This document shows positions 4,535-27,143 of a DNA stretch of 40,095 nt, piece by piece; positions within the stretch are counted from its first letter, which is position 1, and every line of letters begins with the position of its first letter. The DNA comes from an uncultured Lachnospiraceae bacterium (lineage in GTDB: Bacteria; Bacillota; Clostridia; Lachnospirales; Lachnospiraceae). The position numbers were made by a program, and so were the translations under genes. Below the pieces are notes generated by a model that was given only the letters and a program-made list of their open reading frames with translations, ran no database searches and was not told the origin of the DNA. The stretch is taken from NCBI GenBank assembly GCA_947177925.1, contig CAMWWJ010000001.1:1-40095 (forward strand), read 5' to 3'.

Positions 4535-4550
4535 GATTGGAGATTTTGAT

Positions 4551-5722: not shown

Positions 5723-5766
5723 AAAATTCCAGTTTGCAGCTAAAAATTAAAAAGGTGTAAATGAAG

Positions 5767-10577: not shown

Positions 10578-10612
10578 AAGGAATAATCTATTACCTTGAT
10601 TAAGAAAATCTA

Positions 10613-10641
10613 TTGACAAGATAAATATGGAAAAGTATAAT
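10613..10641 (+). promoter_or_regulatory. consensus sigmaA promoter (TTGACA-N17-TATAAT)
   Basis: TTGACA at 10613-10618 and TATAAT at 10636-10641 with an exact 17-nt spacer. Confidence 0.7.
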
Positions 10642-10663
10642 TTGTAGCATAGAACAAAACCTA

Positions 10664-10690
10664 TAAAACCTATTAGGTAAATAGGAATTA
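10664..10690 (+). promoter_or_regulatory. CymR-like (Rrf2) operator candidate
   Basis: TAAAACCTATTAGGTAAATAGGAATTA matches the B. subtilis CymR box as I recall it (TAAWNCNNANTWNANNNATMGGAATTW) at all specified positions except one. Confidence 0.45.
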
Positions 10691-10707
10691 AGAAAGGAGC
10701 AATTCAT

Positions 10708-10803
10708 ATGAAAACAAATAATATGGTAACGAACAGAAGAAATAATAATTGTTGTTGCTGTCAGACTGTATATACGAATACGGTTTACTTTTCATGTGTA
10801 TGA
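10708..10803 (+). CDS. leader peptide ORF with a four-Cys run (MKTNNMVTNRRNNNCCCCQTVYTNTVYFSCV)
   Basis: AAAGGAG RBS 8 nt upstream of the ATG. Codons TGT TGT TGC TGT occupy 10750-10761. The ORF sits between the consensus promoter and cysK. Confidence 0.55.
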   Translation: MKTNNMVTNRRNNNCCCCQTVYTNTVYFSCV

Positions 10804-10832
10804 TGCACCCGGCTTACTAAGCACAAAGCTGG

Positions 10833-10865
10833 CAGTTGTCATAAGCACATGGCAGCTGTTTTTTT
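10833..10865 (+). terminator. weak terminator/attenuator hairpin with a 7-T run
   Basis: CAGTTG/CAGCTG stem (one G-U pair; alternative register AGCTGGC/GGCAGCT) directly followed by TTTTTTT at 10859-10865. It is flanked by the direct repeats TAAGCACA...GGCAG. Confidence 0.4.
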
Positions 10866-10927
10866 ATGAACTTGAAGGATGTTAGCAGAGCTATCAAACA
10901 AATATTAATTTTATGGAGGTAATCATT

Positions 10928-11866
10928 ATGAGTCAGATTAAAGAAAGTGCGCTGGAGTTAATCGGAAAAACCCCAATACTGAAACTGAACGGGTATGCGA
11001 AGAAAGCAGGCGCAGCAGATGCTACAATTCTTGCAAAGCTGGAATATTTCAATCCGGCGGGTTCCGTGAAGGATCGTATTGCATTGGCAATGATTGAGGA
11101 TGCGGAAAAGAAAGGTCTTTTAAAAGAGGGAGCAACCATTATTGAGCCTACCAGCGGGAATACCGGAATCGGTCTTGCTGCTGTTGCAGCGGCAAAAGGA
11201 TACCGGGCAATCCTTACCCTGCCGGATACCATGAGCGTTGAGAGGAGAAATCTTTTAAAGGCATATGGTGCAGAGCTGGTGCTCACAGAAGGGGCCAAAG
11301 GAATGAAGGGGGCTATTGCAAAAGCAGAGGAGCTTTCTAAGGAAATTGACGGAGCAATTATCTTAGGACAGTTTGTGAATCCGGCGAACCCTGCAGTGCA
11401 TAAGGCTACAACAGGACCGGAAATCTGGGAACAGACAGAGGGAAAGGTTGACATTTTTGTTGCTGGTGTAGGAACAGGCGGAACCATCACAGGTGTTGGC
11501 GAATTTTTAAAAGAAAAGAATCCGGATGTAAAAATTGTGGCAGTTGAGCCGGCGGGAAGCCCTGTTTTGTCAAAGGGAACTTCGGGGGCACATAAGATTC
11601 AGGGAATTGGTGCAGGATTTGTTCCAGAAGTACTCAATACAGAAGTGTATGATGAAATTATTACGATTGAGAATGAGGATGCATTTGCAGAAGGCAAGGC
11701 ATTTGCAGTGAGTGAAGGAATCCTTGTGGGAATCTCTTCCGGCGCTGCGCTTAAGGCAGCAGTGATTCTTGCGAACAGACCGGAAAATAAAGGAAAGACG
11801 ATTGTAGCATTACTTCCTGACTCTGGCGACAGATATTTGTCTACTCCATTATTCAATAATAATTAG
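10928..11866 (+). CDS. cysK: O-acetylserine sulfhydrylase (cysteine synthase A), canonical type
   Basis: SVKDRIA PLP lysine, [10 protein letters not shown] and [10 protein letters not shown] motifs. The start is moved to the ATG at 10928, 8 nt after GGAGG. Confidence 0.9.
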
Positions 11867-11984
11867 GAAACGCTGATGAAAGCGTTTCCCGCACCGGATT
11901 TGCGCTGCATGGCAGCATGATTCCGTTGCAAATCCGTGTGCATACGAAGCAGACAGATTTTGTCCGGATTGGAGGCGGATGTGA

Positions 11985-12143
11985 ATGAAAGAAACAGAAA
12001 GTAAGCAGGTTTTGGATAGTTCGCATTTAGGCACTCTTGAAGAACTGTTAAGTGATATGAAATATGGAAGCATCACACTTATTATTCAGGATGGTAAAAT
12101 TGTCCAAATAGATAAAACTGAAAAATATAGAATAAAAGACTGA
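11985..12143 (+). CDS. yezD: YezD-family small protein (DUF2292)
   Basis: 52-aa ORF with the core YGSITLIIQDGKIVQIDKTEKYRI typical of YezD. GGAGG lies 9 nt upstream. It is too short for the ORF track. Confidence 0.65.
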   Translation: MKETESKQVLDSSHLGTLEELLSDMKYGSITLIIQDGKIVQIDKTEKYRIKD

Positions 12144-12151
12144 CTGGAAAA

Positions 12152-12197
12152 CCAGAGGTTTTGTTAAAAAGATTAACAGACCTCTGGCTTTTTCTTT
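12152..12197 (+). terminator. rho-independent terminator after yezD
   Basis: CCAGAGGT/ACCTCTGG 8-bp stem followed by CTTTTTCTTT. Confidence 0.7.
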
Positions 12198-12223
12198 ATA
12201 AATCGTTGTAGTTCCACAATCAG

Positions 12224-12293
12224 GATGCTGTAGCCGTTGGAATGGCATAGGTTTGCAAAACTGAAGTTGGCGGTTCGAATCCGCCCAGTATCA
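12224..12293 (+). tRNA. tRNA-Cys(GCA)-like element, atypical and possibly a pseudo-tRNA or tRNA-derived
   Basis: Manual cloverleaf. The acceptor stem GATGCTG/CAGTATC has one G-U pair. The D stem is GCCG/TGGC. The anticodon loop is TTGCAAA. The T arm GGCGG-TTCGAAT-CCGCC is perfect. Deviations are an A28-G42 mismatch, U14, an A73 discriminator and no encoded CCA. Confidence 0.5.
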
Positions 12294-12333
12294 TTCAGTA
12301 ACGCTTCGGATTCAGGGTAAACCATGACAAACT

Positions 12334-12349
12334 ATATTTTGCATAATAT
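12334..12349. promoter_or_regulatory. near-perfect 16-bp palindrome, candidate regulator (LysR-type) site upstream of the nif-like operon
   Basis: ATATTTTG/CATAATAT has 7 of 8 symmetric positions. It lies 46-61 nt upstream of the NifB-like start. A TATTAT -10 candidate at 12371-12376 has a poor -35. Confidence 0.25.
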
Positions 12350-12394
12350 TTTCTGTTCTGAATCGTTACATATTATAGTGAAAGAAGGTGTAGT

Positions 12395-13267
12395 ATGAGC
12401 AATACATATCAGGACTTGCAAAACTCCCATCCGTGTTTTGGCGGTCATAAAAATAATGTGGGACGGATTCATCTTCCGGTTAGTCCGGGATGTAACATTG
12501 CCTGCCGTTTTTGTGACAGGGTGATCAATGATGTGGAAGAACGGCCGGGAGTGACCTCGAAAGTGATAACGCCTGATGAAAGTCTGGAAGTTCTGGAAAA
12601 AGCTTTATCCATTTGTCCGGAAATCACAGTTGCCGGCATTGCGGGACCGGGAGATACACTTGCTACGGATTATGCCTTGGAGACTTTCCGGAAGGTAAAA
12701 GAAAAATTCCCGAAGCTCATCAAATGTATGAGCACAAACGGGCTGCTTTTGTATGAAAAGGCGGATGAAGTGATTGATATAGGAATTGACTCCCTGACGG
12801 TTACAGTGAATGCGGTAAAACCGGAGATCCTCGCAAAGCTGAATAAATACATTATTTATCATGGCAGAAGATATGAGGGCATAGAAGGGGCAGAAATTCT
12901 CATAGAGAATCAGTTAAAAGGCATCAAAAAAGTTGCGGCTGCCGGTATCACAATAAAGATAAATACGGTACTTGTTCCAGAAATTAATGGCGGGCATATA
13001 GAAGAAATTGCAAGAACCGTAAAAGAGGCAGGTGCAAGCATTTATAATATTATTCCCCTGATTCCGCAGTATGAACTGGCTGACCAGAAAGCACCTGTCT
13101 GTTCCCAGATTGATGAGGCAAGAACAAAAGCCTCTAAGTATATAGATGTATTCAGGCATTGCCAGCACTGCAGGGCCGATGCGGTGGGTGTTCCGGGAAA
13201 ATCGGAGTACGGTGATCAGATTTACCAAAGAAGATTAAATGTAAAGGAAACATTTTCGCATGGATAA
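12395..13267 (+). CDS. NifB-type radical SAM protein (catalytic domain only)
   Basis: HPCF...HLPVSPGCNIACRFCDR provides the CxxxCxxC motif. The C-terminal HCQHCRADAVGVPG resembles the NifB CRADAVG signature. Length is 290 aa. Confidence 0.8.
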   Translation: MSNTYQDLQNSHPCFGGHKNNVGRIHLPVSPGCNIACRFCDRVINDVEERPGVTSKVITPDESLEVLEKALSICPEITVAGIAGPGDTLATDYALETFRKVKEKFPKLIKCMSTNGLLLYEKADEVIDIGIDSLTVTVNAVKPEILAKLNKYIIYHGRRYEGIEGAEILIENQLKGIKKVAAAGITIKINTVLVPEINGGHIEEIARTVKEAGASIYNIIPLIPQYELADQKAPVCSQIDEARTKASKYIDVFRHCQHCRADAVGVPGKSEYGDQIYQRRLNVKETFSHG

Positions 13268-13640
13268 ATCCGCAAATAAACAATTAGAAGAAAGGGTATA
13301 TAAAGTGGCTGCTGCCTCTAGTGATGGAATTGTCATAAACCAGCATTTTGGAAGGGCGGATACATTTTATATATATGAAGTGGCGGGAGCAGGCAATTAT
13401 AGATTTCTTGAAACAAGAACAGTTACACCTGTATGTAACGGGGGGAATCACAGTGATAAGGAACTCCGTGATAATATCAGCAAATTCAAGGACTGCAAAT
13501 ACATATTAGTCAGCAGGATAGGAATGGGCGCTGCGAATATGGTGGAACAGTCCGGCATTACACCAATGGAGCTGCCGGGAATGATGGAAGAGTCACTGGA
13601 TAAGTTAATTACATATGAACAATTACAAAATTTATTTTGA
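13260..13640 (+). CDS. NifX/NafY/NifB-C-terminal-type small domain protein (dinitrogenase FeMo-cofactor-binding fold)
   Basis: VAAASSDGIVINQHFGRADTFYIYEV matches the family signature. It is translationally coupled to the upstream gene (ATGGATAA overlap). Confidence 0.7.
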   Translation: MDKSANKQLEERVYKVAAASSDGIVINQHFGRADTFYIYEVAGAGNYRFLETRTVTPVCNGGNHSDKELRDNISKFKDCKYILVSRIGMGAANMVEQSGITPMELPGMMEESLDKLITYEQLQNLF

Positions 13641-14504
<864 letters not shown>

Positions 14505-14519
14505 AACGGAGGAAAGACA

Positions 14520-15518
14520 ATGGCGAAAATATACGAATCAATTACGGAACTTGTTGGAAGAACACCGCTTCTTGAAATCAAAAATTATGAAAAAAAGCAT
14601 GGCTTACAGGCAAAGATTCTGGTAAAGCTGGAGTATTACAATCCAAACCAGAGCGTAAAGGACAGAATTGCCCTGGCGATGGTGGAGGATGCAGAAAAAA
14701 GAGGACGTTTAAAGCCAGGATATACGATTGTGGAAACAACCAGCGGCAACACCGGAATCGGATTGGCGGCAATCGCTGCGACAAAAGGGTATAAATTCCG
14801 TGTCTATATTCAGGATCAGGTCAGTCAGGAGAGGTATCAGGTCATACATGCTTTTGGCGGGGAGACAATCAAACTTTCTGAGGAACCGGCAATTGCCAAA
14901 GTGCTGGAAGAAACAGGCGGGGATTTTGTAGCAGCAATCAAGGCATTGCGGGAGGAAGTCCTGTCTAAGGAAAAGGATATTTTCTTTGTGGATCAGGTTT
15001 CTAACCCTGCCAATCCGGCTATTCATGAAGCTACAACCGGACCGGAGATATGGGAAGATACCGATGGTAAAGTGGATATTTTTGTGGCAAATGTAGGAAC
15101 GGGCGGAACAGTATCTGGTACCGGCAAGTATTTGAAGTCAAAGAATCCGGCTATAAAGATTGTAGCTATTCAGCCGGGAGAAAATTCCCTGCCGAGTGAT
15201 GCGAATCCTGAACCGGAAGAAATTACAGGCGTGCATCCATTTGAGGGAGTTCCGGAAGAGAGAGTTCCGGCAACGATGGATTTACATATTTATGATGAGA
15301 AGTTTGAAGTGGAAACAATTGAAGCCTATCAGGCAGCCAGGGAAGTAGCAAAGACAGATGGAATTTTGATTGGAACATCTTCTGGAGCGGCCATTTATGC
15401 GGCAACACAGATTGCAAAAAGGCCGGAAAATTCAGGAAAAACAATTGTGGCAGTCTTACCGGATACTGGGCTGCGTTATCTGTCCACTAATTTGTTTAAT
15501 GAAGATTTTTTAGGTTGA
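14520..15518 (+). CDS. divergent CysK/CysM-family PLP enzyme (paralog group with 23309..24295)
   Basis: SVKDRIA and [10 protein letters not shown] are conserved. The canonical [10 protein letters not shown] segment is replaced by PSDANPEPEEITGVHPFEGVP, and there is a ~15-aa insertion. Confidence 0.8.
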   Translation: MAKIYESITELVGRTPLLEIKNYEKKHGLQAKILVKLEYYNPNQSVKDRIALAMVEDAEKRGRLKPGYTIVETTSGNTGIGLAAIAATKGYKFRVYIQDQVSQERYQVIHAFGGETIKLSEEPAIAKVLEETGGDFVAAIKALREEVLSKEKDIFFVDQVSNPANPAIHEATTGPEIWEDTDGKVDIFVANVGTGGTVSGTGKYLKSKNPAIKIVAIQPGENSLPSDANPEPEEITGVHPFEGVPEERVPATMDLHIYDEKFEVETIEAYQAAREVAKTDGILIGTSSGAAIYAATQIAKRPENSGKTIVAVLPDTGLRYLSTNLFNEDFLG

Positions 15519-15532
15519 AATGGAGGTAAATT

Positions 15533-17008
15533 ATGGCAATCAATTTAGAAAGTTCCAATGTGGCAACAAGAGAAAATCGGATTGGTTCTATCACAGGCTA
15601 CATTGGTTCGCTGAGCGATTTGGCATCGCAGAGTGAGTGTGGAACATTAAAAGGATGTTCCAGATGCTTTTCACAGTCCAGCACCTGCCTTTCAAGCTGT
15701 GCATTGGGACAGTTGTCTGCAATCCGTGATGTGGCAATCATTCATCATGGGCCGGCAGGATGTTCTGTGGCAAGCGCAGGAGCCTATTATCTGGATAAAG
15801 TTATGGCGAAGAAACGCGGTGTCACCAATGATACGGTTTATGTTGGCACAGATATGAATGAAAAGGATACCATATTTGGTTCTACGGAATCTTTGCGTAA
15901 GATTATATTGGAAGTTAATAAAAGGTATTCACCAAAAGCAATTTTTGTCACCAGTTCCTGTGCAACCGGAATTATTGGTGAGGATATTGACAGCGTGGTG
16001 GATGAGGTTCGAGATGAGATTGATGTTCCGGTTGTGGCAGTTCATTGTGAGGGATTTAAGTCCCGCATCTGGGCAACAGGCTTTGACATTGCCGACCATG
16101 CGGTACTAAGCTCGATTGTACAGCCGCCGAAGGAGAAGAGAAACACCATCAATTTCAAGAATTTTTATGAGAGTGCAAGACCGGAAATTATGGAGATGTT
16201 TCGGAAATTTGATTTGGAGCCGGTTTTCCTTTATTGTAACTCTACAGTGGAGGAACTGTCGCACATTTCGGAATCCCTTGCAACTACCTGTATCTGCGGT
16301 ACGCTGGGGAATTATCTGGGAAATGCACTGGAGGAAAAATATGGCGTGCCTTATGTGAGAAGCATCAACCAGTGTGGCATTGTGGGGTTTGAAACATGGC
16401 TGCGTGAGATTGGTAAGGTGACAGACCGAAGTGAAAAAATAGAGAAATATATTGAGGAGCAGAGGGCAGTCTACCTGCCACAGATTGAGGAAATCAAGAA
16501 AGAACTGAAAGGACTGCGGGCGGTAATCGGTATGGGACCGGGATATACTTTTGAGGTTTCAAGGGTTCTGAATGAACTTGGCATAGAGGTTGTGTGGGCG
16601 CTTGCATGGCATTATGACAAGAAGTACGAGAATGGGGATGTTCCGCCGTCTATGAAGTATCTGTTAGATAATGACATAGACTTTGAGGCAAGCGTTGCCG
16701 ACCAGCAGAACTTTGAAGTTATGAACATTTTACATAAGTACCAGCCTGATTTATACCTTTCCAGACATCCGGGTTCTACTGTCTGGGCAATCAAAAATGG
16801 TACTCCGGCGGTTTACGTGGCGGATGAATACATGATCTTTGGTTATAAACATACACTTGAGTTTGCCCGTACAATTCTTGACACCATCCGTAACAGGAGT
16901 TTTGAACAGAATCTGGCAAAACGGGTAAAGCTGCCTTATACAGAATGGTGGTATGAGCAGAATGTGGGTGCATTTTTAGAAGAGGCAAAGCCTCGGAAGG
17001 AGGCTTAA
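15533..17008 (+). CDS. NifD/NifE-like alpha subunit of a nitrogenase-like enzyme (pair 1)
   Basis: SCALGQ, HHGPAGC and SSCATGIIGEDID match the P-cluster Cys positions. CEGFKS is present. CICGTLGNYLGNALEEKYGVPY aligns with the NifD Cys275 region. Confidence 0.85.
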   Translation: MAINLESSNVATRENRIGSITGYIGSLSDLASQSECGTLKGCSRCFSQSSTCLSSCALGQLSAIRDVAIIHHGPAGCSVASAGAYYLDKVMAKKRGVTNDTVYVGTDMNEKDTIFGSTESLRKIILEVNKRYSPKAIFVTSSCATGIIGEDIDSVVDEVRDEIDVPVVAVHCEGFKSRIWATGFDIADHAVLSSIVQPPKEKRNTINFKNFYESARPEIMEMFRKFDLEPVFLYCNSTVEELSHISESLATTCICGTLGNYLGNALEEKYGVPYVRSINQCGIVGFETWLREIGKVTDRSEKIEKYIEEQRAVYLPQIEEIKKELKGLRAVIGMGPGYTFEVSRVLNELGIEVVWALAWHYDKKYENGDVPPSMKYLLDNDIDFEASVADQQNFEVMNILHKYQPDLYLSRHPGSTVWAIKNGTPAVYVADEYMIFGYKHTLEFARTILDTIRNRSFEQNLAKRVKLPYTEWWYEQNVGAFLEEAKPRKEA

Positions 17009-17010
17009 AA

Positions 17011-18309
17011 ATGGCAAAATTATTAGATAAACAGAGATATAAATGTGCTTTGGGAGCAATGCAGACAGTACAGGCGATTACAAGGGCGATACCAATACTG
17101 CATTCCGGTCCCGGATGTGCGCAGAAATTATCGGATGGAACAGGGAGTTCTGGTTATTTCTCGCCAAATATTTTTCCATGTACCAGTATAAATGAGAAGG
17201 ATGTGGTATTCGGCGGCACAAAAAAACTGGAAACAACGATAGAAAATGCATTAAAAGTGATTGATGCAGATTTATATGTGGTGTTGACTGGCTGTATCCC
17301 AGAAATTGTAGGTGATGATACAGGCGAGGTGGTAAGCAGGTTTGAAGATGCAGATAAGCCTGTTATTTACGCATCTACAGCGGGATTTAAGGGAAATAAC
17401 TATATCGGACATGAGCAGGTGATTGATGCCATTATAGACCAGTATCTGGAAAAGTCTGAAGAAAAGGAAAAGGGTTTGGTCAATATCTGGGCGGACGTTC
17501 CTTATCAGGATTTATTCTGGCTTGGAAATATCAGGGAACTTGAGAAATTGCTTGCGGAAATTGGGCTTACGCCAAACACGATTTTTGGATATAACAGAGG
17601 AATCGATCAGATCAATAAAATCCCCAAGGCAGAGTTTAACCTGTTGGTTTCCCCATGGGTTTCTGTTGGGAATATGAAGAAAATGGAGAAAAAACTGGGA
17701 CTTCCATGGCTTCATCTTCCTACACTTCCTATTGGTGCATTTGAGACAAGTAAGTTTTTGCGTGAGGTTTCTAAATTTGCAGGAGTGGATGAGGAAAAGG
17801 TGGAAAGCGTCATAGATGGGCATGAGAATTATTATTACTATCTGATTGAAAGATACGCAGACCTTTTTCTTGAAAACCGTGTGATCAATAAGCAGTTTTC
17901 CGTTGTTGCGGATGCGCAGTATGCCCTCGGTATTACGAAGTTTTTAGCAAATGATCTGGGGCTTGTGCCTGCAAAACAGTTTATCGTGGATGATACGCCC
18001 AAACAGTACCGTGAGGCAATTGCAGAAGAATTTAAGAAGCTGAACTTTAACCTGCAGGCGGATGTCATATTTGAGACGGACAGCTATAAGATTCATGAAC
18101 AGATCAAGGAGCATGATTACCACGGATATCCGCTGATCCTTGGAAGCTATTATGAAAAGGAACTTACGGAAAGCCTGAAAGGAAATTACTTAAATATTGC
18201 ATGGCCGGTACAGGATAAAGTGGTACTGGATGATTTCTATGCAGGCTATACAGGAGGTATCCGTCTGATTGAAGATATTTATACTGTTGCCGTGCAGAGA
18301 TTTAATTAG
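17011..18309 (+). CDS. NifK/NifN-like beta subunit (pair 1)
   Basis: KCALGA, HSGPGC and LTGCIPEIVGDD match the NifK-type Cys positions. The gene starts 3 nt after the alpha subunit ORF. Confidence 0.85.
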   Translation: MAKLLDKQRYKCALGAMQTVQAITRAIPILHSGPGCAQKLSDGTGSSGYFSPNIFPCTSINEKDVVFGGTKKLETTIENALKVIDADLYVVLTGCIPEIVGDDTGEVVSRFEDADKPVIYASTAGFKGNNYIGHEQVIDAIIDQYLEKSEEKEKGLVNIWADVPYQDLFWLGNIRELEKLLAEIGLTPNTIFGYNRGIDQINKIPKAEFNLLVSPWVSVGNMKKMEKKLGLPWLHLPTLPIGAFETSKFLREVSKFAGVDEEKVESVIDGHENYYYYLIERYADLFLENRVINKQFSVVADAQYALGITKFLANDLGLVPAKQFIVDDTPKQYREAIAEEFKKLNFNLQADVIFETDSYKIHEQIKEHDYHGYPLILGSYYEKELTESLKGNYLNIAWPVQDKVVLDDFYAGYTGGIRLIEDIYTVAVQRFN

Positions 18310-18323
18310 CAGGAGGGTTTCAT

Positions 18324-18773
18324 ATGTCTTATAAGATAGCGGTTGCATCTTCGGATGGGCAGCAGATTGATGAGTCTTTTGGCTCTGCAAAAAGATTTAT
18401 TATATACGAAGTGACAGACGGTATATATAGAAGGCTGGAAGAAAGAGCTTTTTGTGAGGAAGGAACAGATAACAATGACGTATCTGTAGTGGATGGCTGC
18501 AATTCGTCGGTTAGCTGCAAAAATGAAGGTGGTTGTGGCAGCGGTACAGGAGGCGGATGTGGCGGCGCAGGGGAAGCGTCTGCAAAGGTAGATCTTGTAT
18601 CAGACTGCAGGTGTATTGTCTGTAAAAAGATTGGATTTCACATACAAAAACAATTGGAGCGAAAGGCTATTTCGGCTTTTGATGTTAGTGTCTCTGTGGA
18701 AGAGGCATTGGAAAAGATTTCACATTATTTTACCCGAATGGATAACCATGAGTCTTTACGGGTGCAGAAATAA
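18324..18773 (+). CDS. NifX-type domain protein with a Cys/Gly-rich insertion
   Basis: KIAVASSDGQQIDESFGSAKRFIIYEV signature plus the insert DGCNSSVSCKNEGGCGSGTGGGCGGAG and CRCIVC. Confidence 0.65.
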   Translation: MSYKIAVASSDGQQIDESFGSAKRFIIYEVTDGIYRRLEERAFCEEGTDNNDVSVVDGCNSSVSCKNEGGCGSGTGGGCGGAGEASAKVDLVSDCRCIVCKKIGFHIQKQLERKAISAFDVSVSVEEALEKISHYFTRMDNHESLRVQK

Positions 18774-18787
18774 ACAAAGGCGGACGA

Positions 18788-18830
18788 AAACCGGAGATGG
18801 AATGAAAAGTTCTGTCTCCGGTTTGTTGTC
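18788..18830 (+). terminator. terminator-like hairpin after the nif-like operon
   Basis: AAACCGGAGA/TCTCCGGTTT 10-bp stem with a 17-nt loop, followed by a weak GTTGTC tail. Confidence 0.5.
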
Positions 18831-18846
18831 AGAAGGGAGAGAATAC

Positions 18847-19752
18847 ATGACTTTAAATCAGTTGCTTTATGTTGTGGAGGTATCTAAAACAAAGTCAATC
18901 AATGCTACAGCACATACACTTTTTGTTTCACAGTCTTGTGTCTCAACGGCGATAAGAGAACTAGAGGATGAACTTGGAATTATTATTTTTAACCGGACAA
19001 ACAGAGGTATCACAATAACGAAGAATGGAGAAACATTTATCCATTATGCGAACAATATTATCCAGCAGTGTAAACTGTTAGAAGAAAAATATCTGGGCGA
19101 GGAGGAGCATAAACGACATTTTTCTGTTGTAATGCATCATTCAACTTTTGCCACAAAGGCCTTTGCAAGCGTGGTAAAAGAATTCGGACTTTTGGACTAT
19201 GAATACTCCATTTATGAAACAAATACAAAAACTGTATTGGAACAGGTTCGCAGCGCAAAGAGTGAATTAGGAATATTGTATATAAGTACCTTTAATCAGG
19301 ATTATTATGAAAAAACCTTTAAGGAGTTGAATCTGATATTTGAAAGCATTGCTGAATATGAGGTATATGCTTATATAGGTGAAAATCATCCGCTGGCGTT
19401 CAGGGATGAAATAGAGCTTTCGGAACTTGAGAAATATCCATGCCTTATATTTGATCAGGATGAAAACAGTAGTTTTTATTTTTACGAAGAGATAATTAGT
19501 GCATATGAATATAAAAACGTTATCAGAACCAGCGACAGGGCGACTACGATTGATCTTTTGCAGGAACTTGACGGCTATGCAGTTGGAATCGGGACAGCAA
19601 ATGGAGAGAAATCGGTAAATGGAATAAAGGCTGTAAAAATAAGGACTGATGAGAAAATAAATGTTGGCTATGTGATTAGAGAGGGTAATTGTCTGTCAAA
19701 AATAGCAGAGAAGTTTATTGAGCTATTTCCAGCTGATGTAACATCATTATAA
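18847..19752 (+). CDS. LysR-family transcriptional regulator (paralog of 5909..6820)
   Basis: The start is moved to MTLNQLLYVVEV..., with GGGAGAG RBS upstream. The wHTH and the C-terminal HPLAFRDEIELSELEKYPCLIFDQDENSSFYF align with the first LysR. Confidence 0.85.
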   Translation: MTLNQLLYVVEVSKTKSINATAHTLFVSQSCVSTAIRELEDELGIIIFNRTNRGITITKNGETFIHYANNIIQQCKLLEEKYLGEEEHKRHFSVVMHHSTFATKAFASVVKEFGLLDYEYSIYETNTKTVLEQVRSAKSELGILYISTFNQDYYEKTFKELNLIFESIAEYEVYAYIGENHPLAFRDEIELSELEKYPCLIFDQDENSSFYFYEEIISAYEYKNVIRTSDRATTIDLLQELDGYAVGIGTANGEKSVNGIKAVKIRTDEKINVGYVIREGNCLSKIAEKFIELFPADVTSL

Positions 19753-19826
19753 TTACAATGAATCTATGGGGGTCAGTTATCGAAAATAAGATAGCCAAGT
19801 ATCAGATATGGCTATAGCCAGAAGTA

Positions 19827-19855
19827 TTGACTAGAAGCAGGGAGATAATTATAAT
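19827..19855 (+). promoter_or_regulatory. near-consensus sigmaA promoter (TTGACT-N17-TATAAT)
   Basis: TTGACT at 19827-19832 and TATAAT at 19850-19855. Confidence 0.6.
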
Positions 19856-19906
19856 TGAAACATAAATAAAACATACATAATCCGTAGAGTAAGTAGGAAA
19901 TTGACC

Positions 19907-19953
19907 GGACAACCGGAGATTTGATTTAAAGAATCTTTGGTTGTCCTTTTGTG
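19907..19953 (+). terminator. strong intrinsic terminator inside the leader of the ABC importer operon (attenuator or sRNA 3' end)
   Basis: 15-bp stem GGACAACCGGAGATT/AATCTTTGGTTGTCC (two G-U pairs), 10-nt loop, followed by TTTTGTGT. Confidence 0.7.
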
Positions 19954-20022
19954 TAGGGTTTTATAAAAATGATGCAGAGGAAATTCCAAAATGATTATAA
20001 GAAAAGAAGAGAGGAGGAAAAA

Positions 20023-20415
20023 ATGGAGAAAATCAAATGGCTTAATGTGCTGATTCCAATTGGCGGGATTCTGCTGCTTTTCACATTGTTAAGGCCCTGT
20101 AAAGGGGAGGAAGTGATGAAGTGCAATTACAGCGTAAGTGTTGCAGTACTGCTTTTTACAGTAATTGCGGTGGCAAATATGCTGGCACTCTGGAAAAAAG
20201 AGGGGAAAGCCTTAGTTCCTCTTGTATCGATCCTGATATCCGGTGAGAGCATTTTAGTACCCGCCAAAATCATTGGCGGTTGTATGATGCCCGGCATGGC
20301 ATGCAGGGCGAAATCATTTCCGGGAATTTATGTGTGCTCCCTTATTGTTATTGTGATTGGAGTGCTGGACTTGTTATTACAGATAAGAAAGAGAGGATAT
20401 GAATATGAAAAATAA
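20023..20415 (+). CDS. small polytopic membrane protein with conserved-looking Cys residues
   Basis: The start is moved to MEKIKWLN, after the AGAGGAGG RBS. There are four hydrophobic spans plus CKGEEVMKC and GGCMMPGMAC motifs. It overlaps the binding-protein gene by 17 nt. Confidence 0.55.
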   Translation: MEKIKWLNVLIPIGGILLLFTLLRPCKGEEVMKCNYSVSVAVLLFTVIAVANMLALWKKEGKALVPLVSILISGESILVPAKIIGGCMMPGMACRAKSFPGIYVCSLIVIVIGVLDLLLQIRKRGYEYEK

Positions 20416-21478
20416 AATCAGAGCGGCTGCTCTTGCAGCAATATTGGGAATTACTTTGATAGGATGCGGAAACACCCAGAGTACTGTTGGTACGGGAAAC
20501 GGAGCAGATACGGAAAATGTCTCAGAGACAGAAAGTGCTGATGGAGAATACAAATACGGAAAAATAGATATTCCGGGAAAAGATGGAAGTTTGTGCGGCG
20601 CACCCATTTATATCGCATATGAAAAAGGATTTTTTGCAGAAGAAGGATTTGATGTATCTTTGATATCAGCAGATTTTGAGACGAGAAAGATTGGCCTTAA
20701 CAATGGGACGATTCCCATTGTCAACGGGGATTTCCAGTTTTTCCCTTCTATAGAAGAGGGAATTAAGGTAAAAGTGGCAGACGGGCTGCACAATGGATGT
20801 ATCAAATTTGTGGTAAGACCTGACTCGGATATTTCTACCCCGGAAGATCTGAAAGGGAAAAAAATCGGAGTGGATGAGATTGGCGGCACCCCCCATCAGG
20901 TGGCAAGTGTGTGGCTGGAAAAAGCAGGGATATCCGCTCTTCCCGGTGACGGGGAAGTGACATTTCTGCCTTTTTCCGATGGAAATCTGGAACTGGAAGC
21001 GTTAAAAAGCGGAGACATTGATGTTGCGGCTCTTTGGGATCCCTTTGGTTCTGTGGCAGAAAAAGAAGGACGGGGAAAAATTATTTTTGATCTGTCCACG
21101 GATCCTACATTTGCAGGAAAGTATTGCTGCTTTTTATATGTCTCCAACAAGGTCTTAGAGGAAAAACCGGAAGAAGCGGCAGCGCTTCTTCGGGCATACA
21201 GAAAAGCTCAGGACTGGATAGCCAAAAATCCGGAAGAGACAGTGGATATCATTGCTTCAAAGGGATATTCTTCCATTGAGGATAAGGAACTGGCATTGGA
21301 ACTTATTAAGAGTTACGAGTATCCCACAGAGGAAGACCGTGCCGCAAATAAGCAGAGCGTTTATGATGATGTAAGCTATTTTGCAACAGAGCTTCATAAT
21401 ATCGGTTACCTGAAAGGGGAGCCGGATGTCTTTTCAAAAGATATTTATACGGAAATTGACGTTACACTGGGCCAGTAG
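20399..21478 (+). CDS. ABC transporter substrate-binding lipoprotein, NMT1/SsuA/TauA-like (nitrate/sulfonate/taurine class)
   Basis: Signal peptide with lipobox LIGC|GN. Overall SsuA/NMT1-like pattern (GKKIGV..., DVAALWDPF). Confidence 0.7.
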   Translation: MNMKNKIRAAALAAILGITLIGCGNTQSTVGTGNGADTENVSETESADGEYKYGKIDIPGKDGSLCGAPIYIAYEKGFFAEEGFDVSLISADFETRKIGLNNGTIPIVNGDFQFFPSIEEGIKVKVADGLHNGCIKFVVRPDSDISTPEDLKGKKIGVDEIGGTPHQVASVWLEKAGISALPGDGEVTFLPFSDGNLELEALKSGDIDVAALWDPFGSVAEKEGRGKIIFDLSTDPTFAGKYCCFLYVSNKVLEEKPEEAAALLRAYRKAQDWIAKNPEETVDIIASKGYSSIEDKELALELIKSYEYPTEEDRAANKQSVYDDVSYFATELHNIGYLKGEPDVFSKDIYTEIDVTLGQ

Positions 21479-21492
21479 GAGGTGAATGTCCC

Positions 21493-22509
21493 ATGAGTGA
21501 GACAGAAAAAACATTTGGGAAAAAAGAGAAAAAGCTGATAGCCTCCATATTGTTTACCATGGCTGGTTTTCTCGTAGCAATTTTGGAAAATCTTCTGGTT
21601 CCTCAGTTTGCCATAGGAGTGGCTTTGGAGGTTTATGATCTAAAGATTTTTGGGCTTAATCATAATGAGGCATTTCGGCTGATCTTAATCTGTCTGATGG
21701 CGGCTTATGGGTTAAGCGGGATATTCTCTTTTAAAAGCAAGAAAAAGGCAGAGGAATACATTCAAAAGGCAAGATTTCGATTTGCCATGGGAATTGCACT
21801 TGGGATTTGGGATTATCTGGGGACAAAAATTAAAGTTTTGCCCCAGCCCTTCTTCCCCGGGCCGGCAGAAATCTTAACAGCCTTTTTAAGCGAGGGAAAT
21901 TATATTTTTCAAAACACGTTATACTCCTTAAGGCTTTATGCAGGAGGATTTGTGGGAGGAGTGCTCCTCGGGGTTTCAACAGGGATTTTGATCGGCTGGT
22001 TTCCGAAAGTGAAATATTGGGTTGAACCTGTCCTTAAAATTACAGGGGTGATCCCCGCAGTGGCATGGATGCCCTTTGCACTGACGCTTTTTCCTACCCC
22101 CTATTCGGCGGCAGTTTTTTTAATCGTTATCTGTGCATGGTTTCCCATTGCATCCCTTACCAAGCAGGGGATCGAGAGTACCCCAAAGTCTTTGTTTGAG
22201 GCATCGGAAATCCTGGGAAGCAGCACAGTGTATCAGGTGTTCCATGTGGCGGTTCCCTATGCCATGCCCCAGATTTTTACCGGAATCTCTACGGCAAATG
22301 GTTTTGCATTTACCACTCTTGTAATGGCGGAGATGATGGGACAGCCCGGAGGTCTTGGCTATTATATCAATGCTTCTAAGGTATGGAGCGCATACTATAA
22401 AGTTTTTGCAGCTATTCTTGTAATGGCAGTGCTTTTCAGTTTTATTACCTGGCTTTTAAATATCGTACAGAGAAGGGTGCTTCGCTGGCAGAGAGGACTG
22501 ATCAAATGA
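21493..22509 (+). CDS. ABC transporter permease (SsuC/TauC class) with an N-terminal extension
   Basis: The BPD-type core (EASEILGSS...[15 protein letters not shown]) is preceded by about 90 extra aa containing two hydrophobic spans. Confidence 0.75.
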
Positions 22510-23294
22510 GTGAGAAAAGAAATGTAGTTTTAAAGATGGAACATGTGGGCAGAACCTACCGGGATGAAGAAAAAGAGACAGAAGTGTTACAGTCTGTGGA
22601 TTTTTCTGTAAGGCAGGGGGAGTTTATCTCCATTATCGGAGCCTCCGGCTGTGGAAAGACAACACTTTTAAGACTGATCGCAGGACTTGACAGGCCTCAG
22701 AAGGGAAGAATCCTTTTAGATGGGGAGGAAATTACAAAGCCTTCCCCCAAGGCAGGATATATTTTTCAGCAGGGAAATCTGTTCCAGTGGCTGACGGTCA
22801 GGCAGAATATCGGTTTTGGACTGAAAGCCCAGCACCTGTATAAAGAGAAGAAAGATAAGATAGACGAGTACATAAGAATGGTAGGGCTTAAGGGATTTGA
22901 AGATGTATATCCCCACCAGATCAGCGGCGGTATGGCACAGCGTGTCTCTATCGCAAGGTCTTTGATCTGTAATCCTGAGATACTGCTTTTAGATGAGCCT
23001 ATGGGGGCATTAGATTCTTTTACCAGAGCAGATATACAGGATAAACTTTTAGAGCTGAAAAGGGAAAACGATATTACCATGATCTTAGTCACCCATGATA
23101 TTGACGAGGCAGTGTATTTGTCGGACAGAATCGTGATCATGACTCCACATCCGGGAAAGATCAGCGAGATCGTGGAGGTGGATCTGCCGAAACCACGGCA
23201 CAGGGGAAGCGAGAGTTTCTTTGAACTGAGAAGAAAATTTTTAGAGCGGTTTGAAATGGCAACGGCACAGCCACAGCCGGAATACATTATCTGA
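22506..23294 (+). CDS. ABC transporter ATP-binding protein (SsuB/TauB class)
   Basis: Walker [10 protein letters not shown], signature [15 protein letters not shown], Walker B LLLDEP. Confidence 0.85.
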
Positions 23295-23308
23295 GGAGGA
23301 AAAAAACA

Positions 23309-24295
23309 TTGGGTAAAATTTATCATTCCATTGAAGAACTGGTAGGAAATACTCCGCTTTTGGATTTAAAGAATTATACAAAAGAAAATAATCTGAAGGC
23401 CCGGATACTTGGGAAAATAGAATATTACAATCCCAACCAGAGCATAAAAGACAGAACGGCCCTTAGTATGATCGAACAGGCGGAAAAGGACGGCAGTTTA
23501 AAACCCGGGTATACCATTATCGAGGCAACAAGCGGAAACACAGGAATAGGGCTTGCCGCATTTGCAGCAGTAAAAGGATATGACTGCCATATTTATGTGC
23601 AGGACAATGTAAGTGTGGAGCGTTTTGAAGTAATGAAAGCTTTCGGAGCCAAAGTGTCGGCCATGGGAGATATCCCGGAGGTGGCAGAGGCGTTAGAGAA
23701 AAACAACAATGATTTTGTAGCAGGATATGCGGCATTTTATAAAAAGTATCTGGAATCAAAGGGCAAAACATTTTGCGTGAATCAGGATGGCAATCCGGCA
23801 AATCCCAAAATCCATCAGGAAACTACGGCAAAAGAAATCTGGGAAGATACAGATGGAAAGGTGGATATCGTGGTGGCTGCTGTGGGAACAGGCGGAACGG
23901 TGACAGGACTTGGGAGATTTTTAAAAGCAAAAAATCCGGAGATAAAAATCGTTGCCGTACAGCCGGGAAAAAATTCCATTCCATCAAAGAGCAATCCCCA
24001 TCCAAAAGAAATTGCCGGTGTACATCCCTTCGAGGGAATCCCGGATAAGTTTGTGCCTGCAAATCTTGAAAAAGACATGTATGATGAATATCTGGAAGTG
24101 GAGACAGAGGATGCCTGTAAGGAGGCGAGGCATGTGGCAAGGACAGAAGGAATTTTAGTGGGAGCATCCTCCGGAGCCATTCTTTCTGCCGCAAAAATAC
24201 TGGCAGGGCGTAAAGAAAATCATGGAAAAAATATTGTTGCCATATTGCCGGATACGGGACTTCGTTATCTGTCCACAGGAATGTTTGAAGCATAG
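23309..24295 (+). CDS. divergent CysK/CysM-family PLP enzyme (second copy of the divergent subtype)
   Basis: TTG start 9 nt after GAGGAGG. MGKIYHSIEELVGNTPLL parallels MAKIYESITELVGRTPLL of 14520. It has SIKDRTA and [10 protein letters not shown], and shares the KEIAGVHPFEGIP variant motif. Confidence 0.8.
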   Translation: MGKIYHSIEELVGNTPLLDLKNYTKENNLKARILGKIEYYNPNQSIKDRTALSMIEQAEKDGSLKPGYTIIEATSGNTGIGLAAFAAVKGYDCHIYVQDNVSVERFEVMKAFGAKVSAMGDIPEVAEALEKNNNDFVAGYAAFYKKYLESKGKTFCVNQDGNPANPKIHQETTAKEIWEDTDGKVDIVVAAVGTGGTVTGLGRFLKAKNPEIKIVAVQPGKNSIPSKSNPHPKEIAGVHPFEGIPDKFVPANLEKDMYDEYLEVETEDACKEARHVARTEGILVGASSGAILSAAKILAGRKENHGKNIVAILPDTGLRYLSTGMFEA

Positions 24296-24317: not shown

Positions 24318-25523
24318 ATGAAAAAAATTACTACAGGAAGGATTGCGTTAAGTAATCTGAAACAAAAGCCTTTCCGTCTGGCAGGTCTGATTCTTTTGGT
24401 GGCAGTTGTCACTTTTGCATTTTTTGGCACACTGTTGGCATTGGCAGGATTAAAAAATGGCACGGAAAGTCTAAGGGGAAGAATGGGTGCGGATTTTATG
24501 ATCGTGCCCATCGGCTATGAAAAAGCGACTTGGGGAATTTTGTTAAAAGGCGAGCCAGGTTATTTTTATCTGGATAAATCTGTGGAAGGAAAGATAAGGG
24601 ACATTAAGGGAGTGGAAAAAGTCACATCCCAGTTTTATATGGCGTCAAGCGGACAAGATTGCTGTGATATTCCGGTTCAGTTTATCGGTTTTGATTCCGG
24701 CACGGACTTTGTTGTTACCCCCTGGATAAAACAGGTTTTTAAAAACCCGTTGGAAGAGGGGGCTCTTGTAGTTGGCAGTGATATAGAAGTGCCGGGAAAT
24801 GAAAAACTTTTATTCTACGGAAAAGAATTTCCTGTTGCTGCAAAACTTGACCGAACAGGTACGGGAATCGACCAGAGTGTGTTTGCAGATACGGATACCA
24901 TAAAAGCGCTTTTGAAGGCAGCAAAAGAGGAGGGATTTACCTTTACAGACAGTGTTGATCCGGACATTTCTGTTTCCAATCTTATGGTAAAGATAGAAAA
25001 AGGATATGATGCCGAAGAGGTAAAGCACAATATACGGGTAGCTATGGACGGACTGCAGATTATTGAGACAACAGAGATGATCCGCTCCATAGAGGACAAT
25101 ATCGGGCAGATTTATCTGTTTATGAAAGTTGTTTTATGTATTCTGGTTTTTATTTCCGTTATCACTTTGACAATTATGTTTTCTGTCTCAGCAAACGAAC
25201 GGCGGAAAGAGTTTGCCATTATCCGGATGCTGGGGGCAAAAAAATCATCCCTGGTAAATATATTAGGGAAAGAAGCGTTGATTGTAAGCGCAGCGGGAGG
25301 GATTTTAGGAGTTCTGGCAGGAATTTTGGTTTTTATTCCTTTCCGCACAGTCATTGGAAACAGTATAGATTTTCCCTATCTCCTGCCCGGAGTTTTGCAG
25401 ACAGTCGGGATTTTAGTCTTTTCCATGACAGTTTCCCTTGTCCTTTGTCCGTTGTCCTCCAGTGTGACCATTTTTAAAATCTGCAGGGGACAGACACATT
25501 TTATTATGAGGGAAGGTGAGTAA
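24318..25523 (+). CDS. FtsX/MacB-type ABC transporter permease
   Basis: The start is moved to MKKITTGRIALSNLKQKPFR. One N-terminal TM is followed by a large extracytoplasmic domain and three C-terminal TMs. Confidence 0.7.
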   Translation: MKKITTGRIALSNLKQKPFRLAGLILLVAVVTFAFFGTLLALAGLKNGTESLRGRMGADFMIVPIGYEKATWGILLKGEPGYFYLDKSVEGKIRDIKGVEKVTSQFYMASSGQDCCDIPVQFIGFDSGTDFVVTPWIKQVFKNPLEEGALVVGSDIEVPGNEKLLFYGKEFPVAAKLDRTGTGIDQSVFADTDTIKALLKAAKEEGFTFTDSVDPDISVSNLMVKIEKGYDAEEVKHNIRVAMDGLQIIETTEMIRSIEDNIGQIYLFMKVVLCILVFISVITLTIMFSVSANERRKEFAIIRMLGAKKSSLVNILGKEALIVSAAGGILGVLAGILVFIPFRTVIGNSIDFPYLLPGVLQTVGILVFSMTVSLVLCPLSSSVTIFKICRGQTHFIMREGE

Positions 25524-26189
25524 ATGGATATAGAACTGAGGGAAGCAAGCAGACAGTTTATGCGAAGAGGGGAGAATTTTTTTGCCATAGAAAATATTGA
25601 TCTGCAGATAAAACAGGGGGAGTTTCTCTTTCTTACAGGCAGTTCAGGCAGTGGCAAAACAACTTTGCTCCATATTATCTGCGGTCTGCTTTATCCAACA
25701 TCAGGAAAAGTTTTTCTGGACGGGAACCAGTGGGAGGATATGACAGATAAACAGGCATCGATTTTTAGAAACAGACAGATCGGATTTATCCCACAGGAAG
25801 AGAGCCTGCTTTCTAACCTTACGGTATTTGAAAATATCTGCCTGCCCTACACATTTTCCAAAGAGACGGAGGTAGATATAGAAAAAGTAGACCAGACTGC
25901 TGAAAGGCTTAAGATTCGTCAGTTTTTCAATGCTTATCCCAAAGAATTATCGGGAGGGGAAAAAAGAAGGGTTATGATCGCAAGGGCAGTTATACTTTCT
26001 CCTAAGATTATCATTGCAGATGAGCCCACCGCTAATCTGGACGAAGAAAACGCCAAAGAAGTAATGGAGATATTAAAAGAGATAAACAGGGAAGGGTCAA
26101 CGGTTCTTGTAAGCACCCATGAAAAGGAAATTATTTTTGGCAGCAATGGATATGAAATGAAACATGGTAGTTTGAAAAAATGGAGGTAA
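25524..26189 (+). CDS. ABC transporter ATP-binding protein (MacB/LolD/FtsE class)
   Basis: GSSGSGKTT, LSGGEKRRVMIARA and IIIADEPTANLD motifs. Confidence 0.85.
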   Translation: MDIELREASRQFMRRGENFFAIENIDLQIKQGEFLFLTGSSGSGKTTLLHIICGLLYPTSGKVFLDGNQWEDMTDKQASIFRNRQIGFIPQEESLLSNLTVFENICLPYTFSKETEVDIEKVDQTAERLKIRQFFNAYPKELSGGEKRRVMIARAVILSPKIIIADEPTANLDEENAKEVMEILKEINREGSTVLVSTHEKEIIFGSNGYEMKHGSLKKWR

Positions 26190-26194
26190 AAGAC

Positions 26195-26707
26195 ATGGCA
26201 AAGGAAAAAAATTATATCATCAGACATGCCTCTCTCTCGGATTTAGATGCAGTTGCGGAATTGGAAGGATTATGTTTTTCCAAGGCGGATGGAGCCACAA
26301 GAGAAAGCTTTGAAAAACGGCTTAAGGTTTTTCCAGACCACTTCTGGCTGTTGGAAGTAGAGGGGGTTTTAGTTTCCCTGGTAAACGGCATGGTAACTGA
26401 CGGCGACACCCTTTTGGATGAAATGTATGATGATGCCGGTATGCATAAGGAAGAGGGAGACTGGCAGATGATTTTTGGAGTTGAGACAAGGCCGGATTAC
26501 CAGAGAAAAGGTTATGCGGAAATTTTGCTCAAAAGGGTGATTGGGGATACCAGAAAACAGAACCGGAAGGGACTGGTTTTAACCTGTAAGGAACATATGG
26601 TGCATTACTATGAGAAGTTTGGTTTTGTCAACGAAGGACTGTCAGAGTCAATCCATGGAGGGGCACAGTGGTATCATATGAGATATCAGATGAAAATAGA
26701 GTTTTAA
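26195..26707 (+). CDS. GNAT-family N-acetyltransferase
   Basis: The start is moved to MAKEKNY, after GGAGG. It has a GNAT core with the QRKGYAEILLKRV acetyl-CoA loop. Confidence 0.7.
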   Translation: MAKEKNYIIRHASLSDLDAVAELEGLCFSKADGATRESFEKRLKVFPDHFWLLEVEGVLVSLVNGMVTDGDTLLDEMYDDAGMHKEEGDWQMIFGVETRPDYQRKGYAEILLKRVIGDTRKQNRKGLVLTCKEHMVHYYEKFGFVNEGLSESIHGGAQWYHMRYQMKIEF

Positions 26708-26723
26708 ATGTAAAGGGATATGT

Positions 26724-27143
26724 ATGGAATATAGGATTCAGACCAAAACAGAAGGAATAAATTTTAGTGAAGTTTGTGATATATTGGCTTATTATGGATT
26801 AAGCAATTTTGATGTAGAAACGCAGAAACGTGTCTTTAATAATAGCTATGCAGTTGTGTTTGTTATTGAGAATAACAAGGTAATCGGTGTTGGAAGAGCT
26901 ATCTCTGATGGAATATGTCAGGCGGCATTATATAACATTGCATTGGATAAAGAACACTGTGGTATGGGATTGGGAAAAATAATTGTTGATGAATTATTGA
27001 AACAGGTTAAGGGATGCAATGTTATTCTTTATACGCATCCAAAGTGGATAGGACTGTACAAACATTGGGGGTTTGAACAAATGAAAACAGGATTTGCCTT
27101 ATATACTGACAAAGAATATTTCCAGAGTGAAGGATTTACATAA
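26724..27143 (+). CDS. GNAT-family N-acetyltransferase (second, unrelated subtype)
   Basis: 139 aa. VIGVGRAISDG...HCGMGLGKIIVDELL is a GNAT motif A pattern. Confidence 0.65.
   Translation: MEYRIQTKTEGINFSEVCDILAYYGLSNFDVETQKRVFNNSYAVVFVIENNKVIGVGRAISDGICQAALYNIALDKEHCGMGLGKIIVDELLKQVKGCNVILYTHPKWIGLYKHWGFEQMKTGFALYTDKEYFQSEGFT

Follow-up and report, generated by a model that had tools for sequence, protein, structure and literature searches.

Nitrogenase homologs of the methylthio-alkane reductase (Mar) type have been characterised in purple bacteria only, where methanethiol is fixed into methionine by MetY, and Mar systems have been predicted in Clostridia (2026 review). In Rhodospirillum rubrum and Rhodopseudomonas palustris, MetY (O-acetylhomoserine sulfhydrylase) traps the methanethiol released by Mar. 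It was remarked in 2012 that nitrogenase-like genes often adjoin cysteine synthase; our literature search gave no description of a divergent CysK subfamily, of its signature, or of a fixed place for it between the H and D genes. Two such CysK-family genes, variants A and B, are described here in a window of 40,095 nucleotides, the whole stretch of DNA that was analysed (uncultured Lachnospiraceae bacterium, contig CAMWWJ010000001.1, positions 1 to 40,095), which is a sulfur-metabolism island. Variant A is encoded within a nitrogenase-like (nif-like) operon and variant B beside an SsuABC-like importer. Together with the reductase and the importer the two copies belong to a conserved gene set of gut Firmicutes, and because this set pairs a C-S-cleaving nitrogenase-like enzyme with an importer, they probably capture the sulfur freed by C-S cleavage.

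Three CysK-family open reading frames (ORFs) are present where an earlier annotation, made from the letters of the DNA alone (the sequence-only reading), had placed them, and the canonical gene probably begins at ATG 10928, as written there. The canonical product clears the NCBIfam cysK equivalog cut-off (448.9 against 350.95 bits). The N-termini of A and B match in the alignment, again as that reading had it; the two are 61% identical to each other and, respectively, 55% and 53% identical to the canonical protein. With 318.4 (A) and 310.1 bits (B) on the cysK model (TIGR01139; cut-off 350.95) and 332.9 and 326.5 bits on cysKM (cut-off 344.15), both variants fail both cut-offs. They scored 250-265 bits on the CysM models (TIGR01138 / PRK11761; cut-offs 394 and 413), 285 and 276 bits on cystathionine β-synthase (CBS; cut-off 510), 202 and 218 bits on SbnA (cut-off 350), and 229 and 238 bits on the cysteate synthase CapA (cut-off 600). 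Relatives of A and B are publicly annotated as 'cysteine synthase family protein'.

The replacement of the substrate loop, which had been proposed for both variants, is real: in the alignment the canonical segment gives way to SDANPEPEEITGVHPFEGVPEERVP in A and to SKSNPHPKEIAGVHPFEGIPDKFVP in B. The new loop, NPxPEEIxGVHPFEG[VI]P, is acidic and 6 residues longer, and it stands in for both the CysE-docking loop and the QGIGAGF pocket wall, the latter being represented by EGVPEER in A and EGIPDKF in B. Within the Lys/His/Lys triad of the β8A-β9A loop, His alone is kept in the two variants; the Gln of QGIGAGF is changed to Glu, and the Phe that follows the carboxylate-binding Gln is lost. The motif GVHPFEG[VI]P is carried by 168 of 209 close homologs, and most loop positions are at least 90% conserved over 44 sequences whose identity to A otherwise ranges from 53 to 95%, so the motif is not a product of chance.

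An additional insertion had been reported directly after the TSGNTG loop. It exists (about 11-13 residues), but it sits some 40 residues downstream of that loop, at about residues 118-135 of A. In the AlphaFold2 model of A (mean predicted local distance difference test score 89.1) it forms an extra helix, residues 123-132, that aligns with the flexible N-terminal lid subdomain of CysK. This subdomain of CysK has been described as closing upon substrate binding, while the β8A-β9A loop is 'situated near the active site' and its Lys/His/Lys triad is essential for CysE binding; the positions of loop and helix relative to the active site were taken from alignment to CysK together with these published descriptions. 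As the changes sit at the lid subdomain, the β8A-β9A loop and the GIGAGF wall, and hence border the active site, a changed second substrate or partner is a reasonable expectation, and to this extent the earlier proposal of a different nucleophile or acceptor stands. The entrance to the active site is remodelled, and it is likely, judging from the alignment, that CysE docking has been lost and the nucleophile pocket changed.

The catalytic residues are intact. A and B have the Schiff-base Lys (SVKDR), TSGNTG, the carboxylate-binding Gln, GTGGT and the serine of SSGAA, and none of these varies among 44 members of the family. The fold of the variant A model is CysK-like, with template modelling (TM) scores of 0.83-0.85 to CysK, β-cyanoalanine synthase and bean S-methylcysteine synthase, and a Foldseek search of the PDB found no solved structure that matched better than ordinary CysK-family enzymes. 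From sequence we conclude that A and B should be active β-replacement enzymes dependent on pyridoxal phosphate (PLP). Enzymes that use O-acetylserine have Phe after the carboxylate-binding Gln, and those that use O-phosphoserine have Tyr there (PMC12800425); the residue is Val in A, Asp in B and variable across the family. With neither variant carrying Tyr at this marker, O-phosphoserine, one of the substrates that had been suggested, is not favoured. In CysM, an Arg at the position of the Gln of QGIGAGF is said to mark thiosulfate use; in A and B this position is occupied by Glu. The residue markers of A and B thus do not appear to point to O-phosphoserine or to thiosulfate.

Loss of pocket Phe residues, as read from the alignment, would fit a larger nucleophile, such as would be used if A and B were MccA-like, O-acetylserine-dependent cystathionine β-synthases. 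By that route methanethiol would be converted through methionine to homocysteine, the variant would join homocysteine to O-acetylserine, and an MccB-like lyase would free cysteine. An MccB-like gene is indeed found in the window and is syntenic elsewhere; the best NCBIfam model for its product is bifunctional cystathionine γ-lyase/homocysteine desulfhydrase (465 bits, below cut-off). However, the canonical-type cysK beside the MccB-like gene could serve equally well in such a route, and the CBS scores of both variants are far under the cut-off. An MccA-like function is thus quite unlikely.

In the homology search, only a handful of 50%-identity representative clusters carried both insertions. 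A-type and B-type sequences formed sister groups in a neighbour-joining (NJ) tree, with bootstrap values of 100 for A, 98 for B and 91 for A and B together, nested in a larger insertion-bearing clade (bootstrap 84) apart from the canonical CysK representatives; this is a distance tree without named CysM, MccA and SbnA references, those families having been judged by their NCBIfam scores, all below cut-off. The two genes are accordingly a distinct subtype and not drifted duplicates. Two Butyrivibrio metagenome-assembled genomes (MAGs) encode an A-type gene in the mar-like cluster and a B-type gene at a separate importer locus; therefore the duplication is old and both copies have been maintained. 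A relative in Lysinibacillus bears both insertions and a different but related loop, EITGVHRFSDAEE. A third insertion-bearing CysK-like type was seen in some Lachnospiraceae (L001 20231-20999, L031 4937-6013, L033 7141-7995), 3' of the LysR gene that trails the mar-like cluster; it is 42-49% identical to A and has the loop HGIHQVHDENG.

To address the association of the subtype with nif-like genes, a collection holding one genome per species was scanned with the back-translated pattern GVHPF[ED]GxP, which gave at least 118 blocks of up to 8 kb. Among the matches listed, to which the following counts also refer, 99 blocks hold a variant CysK and 19 are without CysK; from the information content of the pattern we estimate that about 17 matches would arise by chance in so large a collection. 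A nif-like gene is present in the same block in 89 of the 99 cases. NifD-like genes are directly downstream in 76 and NifH-like genes directly upstream in 65; the block ends before the downstream neighbour in 5 cases and before the upstream one in 17. A nif-like gene was nearby in 2 of 50 generic metagenome CysK loci of at least 6 kb, which served as the control; these came from back-translated distant-clade patterns that proved generic and retrieved mostly canonical CysK, with only L124 and L156 insertion-bearing in that scan.

The coupling is tight and conserved. The order NifB-NifX-NifH-CysKv-NifD-NifK-NifX (CysKv, variant CysK) recurs in Lachnospiraceae, Butyrivibrio, Dorea, Roseburia, Blautia, Ruminococcus, Oscillospiraceae, Lacrimispora and Hungatella, and also in MAGs of Treponema. 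In the window, gaps of 15 and 14 bases, with GGAGG ribosome-binding sites, separate variant A from the NifH-like and NifD-like genes, between which it had been placed. The contrast between the scan and the control, with which the contexts of B-type genes agree, upholds the claim that the copies are tied to the nif-like operon and the importer, and the variant motif was not found to be common, for this narrow subtype, in CysK genes that lack nif-like neighbours. The further claim that the variants are distinct from the housekeeping cysK is right in that they are a separate subtype, but it is too simple: the canonical gene, which in many related genomes immediately precedes the NifB-like gene, also belongs to the conserved neighbourhood.

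The NifD-like protein matched MarD of R. rubrum (9FMG_A) along the entire length (1e-91, 311 bits); the best true nitrogenase scored 124 bits. In the alignment to 9FMG_A, the P-cluster ligand motifs retain cysteines, and the counterparts of C270 and H429 are conserved; in MarD, Cys270 and His429 bind the [Fe8S9C] cluster. The NifH-like sequence shows both cysteine motifs for a [4Fe-4S] cluster, GCAGRG and VVCGGF. The NifB-like protein (290 aa) is without a fused NifX domain, NifX being a separate gene, and MarB has likewise been described as being without this domain. By its best-match relationship to MarD, the nif-like enzyme is Mar-like. The second NifD/K-like pair (30280-33022) is also Mar-like, its NifD-like protein matching MarD at 235 bits; such a pair adjoins the first cluster in many genomes and in some replaces the first pair beside NifH-CysKv. 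In the window this second pair has no NifH of its own and is preceded, within 27415-33022, by the Rrf2, NifS and CysE-like genes.

Variant B, which starts with TTG behind a GGAGG site, had been said to close the importer operon. It does not, as FtsX-like, ABC ATPase and two GNAT genes continue on the same strand. B-type genes recur beside an SsuABC-like importer, a DUF4418-FtsX-ABC module and one or two GNATs, and in some genomes GNATs alone adjoin the B-type CysK. On a JGI contig with a related cluster, one gene (7784-8941) fuses an ABC ATPase with a GNAT and another (13191-14858) fuses a Cys/Met PLP enzyme with a PNPOx-like domain. The ABC ATPase-GNAT fusion speaks for a functional link of the FtsX-ABC module with the GNATs. 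Distant insertion-bearing relatives adjoin genes for LanC-like, cystathionine γ-synthase (CGS)-like and PatB-like proteins, amino-acid-type ABC systems and nif-like genes. LanC-like genes are next to distant insertion-bearing CysK-like genes at three loci (L124 6259-7716, L156 8952-11712, L205 11023-12294), the last of which combines the LanC-like and CysK-like genes with nif-like genes, an SsuA-like importer, DUF4418-FtsX-ABC and a CGS-like gene. This linkage hints at thioether amino-acid chemistry.

The embedding of B in the importer operon could also mean that A and B act on imported S-substituted cysteines, exchanging or eliminating the S-substituent, for example by converting S-alkylcysteine and sulfide to cysteine and a thiol, and so feeding thiols to the Mar-like reductase or taking products from it. 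Clade members adjoining amino-acid-type binding proteins, LanC-like proteins and C-S lyases would agree with this, as would the presence among the closest structural matches of β-cyanoalanine synthase, a CysK-fold enzyme with cysteine as its amino-acid substrate. The nearby CysE-like gene, on the other hand, fits O-acetylserine as the substrate, and C-β-S cleavage is already supplied by PatB. We consider action on imported cysteine derivatives very unlikely.

These results suggest that A and B are most likely dedicated, CysE-independent β-replacement enzymes that trap the thiol or sulfide of an organosulfur pathway. By analogy, β-replacement trapping of the sulfur product is plausible because MetY traps the thiol released by Mar in purple bacteria. 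What the enzymes use as substrate, in which direction they run and that they no longer bind CysE we infer as follows. The A/B clade would carry out the amino-acid-forming step of an anaerobic organosulfur assimilation built around the Mar-like nitrogenase homolog. α-Aminoacrylate would still be formed from O-acetylserine, CysE would no longer be docked, and the nucleophile pocket and lid, rebuilt and acidic, would allow the aminoacrylate to be condensed with the sulfur product of the pathway. That product would most likely be a neutral thiol, e.g. methanethiol, giving S-alkylcysteine, and less likely sulfide, giving cysteine. Copy A would be synthesised along with the reductase, and copy B along with the importer and the GNAT acetyltransferases.

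An organic thiol giving S-alkylcysteine is favoured as the nucleophile, with a probability of roughly 40%, because the entrance is acidic and enlarged, the determinants of CysE binding are lost, the partner proteins handle S-substituted amino acids, and an acetylate-cleave-deacetylate logic for S-alkylcysteines is known from Bacillus. S-substituted amino acids are the substrates of all the recurrent partners, namely PatB, the CGS-like enzyme, LanC-like proteins and GNATs, and N-acetylation is a known first step of S-alkylcysteine breakdown in Bacillus. A few observations weigh against a thiol-specific role. Canonical CysK-type enzymes are reported to make S-methylcysteine from methanethiol, so the remodelling is not required for this synthesis; PDB entry 9RJ1, named S-methylcysteine synthase, is among both the sequence and the structural matches. 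The CGS-like enzyme of the cluster could instead trap methanethiol by γ-replacement. S-methylcysteine would need one more step before it could be used, and a candidate enzyme for that step was not identified. Among the matches listed, 10 of the 99 motif-bearing genes have no nif-like gene in the 8-kb block. The insertion-bearing gene of Lysinibacillus has a formate/nitrite-family channel gene on one side and a GNAT on the other, and the 9 kb to either side of it contain no nif-like gene.

The last of these observations bears also on a doubtful explanation by which A and B are ordinary sulfide-dependent O-acetylserine sulfhydrylase isozymes that differ in regulation only. Such isozymes would escape CysE inhibition, be co-expressed with the reductase and the importer under sulfur limitation, and scavenge the sulfide arising downstream of C-S cleavage. 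The formate/nitrite channel family includes hydrosulfide channels. All catalytic residues are kept, CysK is the nearest family, and the lost residues include those for CysE docking. R. palustris needs a Mar homolog to grow with the thiol ethanedithiol as its source of sulfur, from which we infer release of sulfide, and the nearby NifS and CysE-like genes suggest a demand for cysteine in Fe-S cluster assembly. However, escape from CysE alone needs neither replacement of the GIGAGF wall, nor a lid helix, nor an acidic entrance, and such an entrance, as deduced from the alignment, should disfavour the HS- anion. Moreover, a canonical cysK is already present in the same clusters, often adjacent, and the variant loop is strongly constrained.

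A further reading, which we regard as a long shot, extends the preferred role in thiol trapping: the variant CysK would convert a thiol (e.g. methanethiol) to S-alkylcysteine, and this, possibly N-acetylated by a GNAT, would be the true substrate of one of the two Mar-like reductases, which would break the bond between alkyl group and sulfur to yield cysteine and an alkane. If true, the S-alkylcysteine reading would give the oxygen-dependent S-alkylcysteine salvage of Bacillus a counterpart that is anaerobic and nitrogenase-like, and gut Firmicutes a way to form methane or ethylene.

All genes discussed are on the + strand in the ORF list of the window (Table 1). Their order begins with a LysR regulator, followed by the MccB/CGS-like enzyme, the PatB-family lyase, glutamate-cysteine ligase and the canonical cysK. 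Next come tRNA-Cys(GCA) and the genes for the NifB-like, NifX-like, NifH-like, variant A, NifD-like, NifK-like and second NifX-like proteins, and then the second LysR gene, DUF4418, the SsuA-like binding protein, permease, ATPase and variant B. The FtsX-like permease, ABC ATPase, two GNATs, Rrf2, NifS, CysE-like gene and second NifD/K-like pair follow. NifS scored 598 bits, above cut-off. That CysE occurs in the same region, as stated in the sequence-only reading, is borne out by the CysE-like gene at 29196-30185, although its score (158.5 bits) is under the NCBIfam cysE cut-off of 210.65; its product has an N-terminal extension.

Table 1. Features of the sulfur-metabolism island and the evidence for each.
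Feature	Position	Strand	Evidence
MccB/CGS-like PLP enzyme	6836-8002	+	Family match; recurrent upstream partner by synteny
PatB-family C-S lyase	7986-9176	+	Family match; recurrent upstream partner by synteny
Canonical cysK	10913-11866, probable start ATG 10928	+	TIGR01139 448.9 bits; K/H/K loop intact
tRNA-Cys(GCA), leader of nif-like operon	12224-12293	+	Rfam 47.1 bits; ARAGORN
NifB-like radical SAM protein (MarB-like)	12395-13267	+	TIGR01290 271 bits, sub-cut-off, radical SAM part only
NifX-like cofactor-binding protein	13260-13640	+	nifX and nifB C-terminal model matches
NifH-like ATP-dependent reductase (MarH-like)	13656-14504	+	TIGR01287 465.8 bits; GCAGRG and VVCGGF present
CysK variant A, 332-aa putative PLP β-replacement enzyme	14520-15518	+	ORF, alignment, AlphaFold2 model, conserved order
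MarD-like catalytic subunit	15533-17008	+	Best PDB match 9FMG_A (R. rubrum MarD), 1e-91, full length
MarK-like subunit	17011-18309	+	Nitrogenase component 1 family model matches
Second NifX-like protein	18324-18773	+	Family model match
LysR-type regulator between both operons	18811-19752	+	Pfam HTH_1 and LysR_substrate
DUF4418 protein, SsuA-like binding protein, permease, ATPase (importer)	19969-23294	+	Family matches
CysK variant B, 328 aa, TTG start, inside importer operon	23309-24295	+	ORF, alignment
FtsX-like permease, ABC ATPase, GNAT1, GNAT2 (3' of B)	24318-27143	+	Family matches
Rrf2 regulator, NifS, CysE-like acetyltransferase, second Mar-like DK pair	27415-33022	+	Family matches

Among 30 related loci, taken from different species, 16 carry a tRNA-Cys(GCA) on the strand of the operon (L001, L014, L019, L030, L035, L038, L044, L052, L066, L075, L106, L108, L118, L122 and two more), and it was just 5' of the NifB-like gene where coordinates were compared. 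It is unusual for the leader of a cysteine-related operon to contain a conserved cysteine tRNA. Strong promoter-like sites were found within 10613-10860 (12/12), ahead of cysK, and at 19827-19855 (11/12), ahead of the importer operon. Behind each of them comes a terminator-like hairpin, just 5' of the respective genes; the one preceding the importer operon is at 19907-19946. Such an arrangement looks like an attenuator-style leader. Control by a riboswitch or T-box was considered and rejected, as a whole-window Rfam search at the gathering threshold gave tRNA-Cys only, and Rfam E-value searches of the leaders 10400-12450 and 19700-20050 gave no further credible match.

The region 5' of the sulfur island (1904-5375) encodes a ThiF-family protein, a protein with rhodanese and PP-loop (TtcA-like) parts, and a 274-aa ORF that bears an SSGVDS motif, taken as PP-loop-like, and has no Pfam match at 1e-5. 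A thiocarboxylate sulfur donor of the CysO type was considered on account of the ThiF-like and rhodanese/PP-loop genes at 1904-3812 and was rejected, since no small ThiS/CysO-like ORF ending in Gly-Gly was found in 800-6000.

Among known systems, A and B share fold and PLP motifs with CysK (O-acetylserine sulfhydrylase A) and are 39-45% identical to solved CysK proteins in structural alignments. Unlike CysK, they are below the family cut-offs, possess an extra lid helix and a longer, acidic β8A-β9A loop, have lost two of the three CysE-binding residues, and carry EG[VI]P plus acidic residues in place of QGIGAGF. CysM (O-acetylserine sulfhydrylase B) is likewise a CysK paralog with an altered β8A-β9A region, and a different nucleophile range is a property of CysM; CysM, however, lacks the loop and has an Arg as the mark of thiosulfate use, whereas A and B have a lengthened loop and Glu at the marker. 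Plant BSAS4;1 and the Entamoeba cysteine synthase also have the CysK fold and are reported to join methanethiol to O-acetylserine. The matches to them, as to other solved CysK proteins, span 300-340 residues and leave the insertions of A and B unmatched, and these enzymes have no linkage to nitrogenase-like genes.

The salvage of S-alkylcysteine and S-(2-succino)cysteine in Bacillus subtilis resembles the present gene set in grouping the genes for an ABC importer, a GNAT and an enzyme of C-S cleavage; it recovers cysteine in Firmicutes by acetylation, cleavage and deacetylation. There the cleaving enzyme is an oxygen-dependent monooxygenase or a lyase, whereas the candidate here is an anaerobic nitrogenase-like reductase, to which a CysK-like enzyme is added; a deacetylase was not seen in the window.

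The signature GVHPFEG[VI]P together with the lid helix can be used to find such systems in gut and rumen metagenomes. Should the substrate be an organic thiol, A and B would define a new CysK specificity class and help to account for the use of volatile or diet-derived organosulfur compounds by strict anaerobes. A parallel to the arrangement is MetY beside the mar genes of R. rubrum and R. palustris, also a PLP sulfhydrylase-type gene adjoining a Mar-type reductase. MetY has an unrelated fold and forms methionine by γ-replacement, whereas A and B, with the CysK fold, would form cysteine or an S-substituted cysteine by β-replacement. Here a widespread Firmicutes and Treponema version of the Mar system has a remodelled CysK-fold enzyme between the reductase genes, which suggests a different exit from the pathway, to cysteine or S-substituted cysteines, and possibly different substrates.

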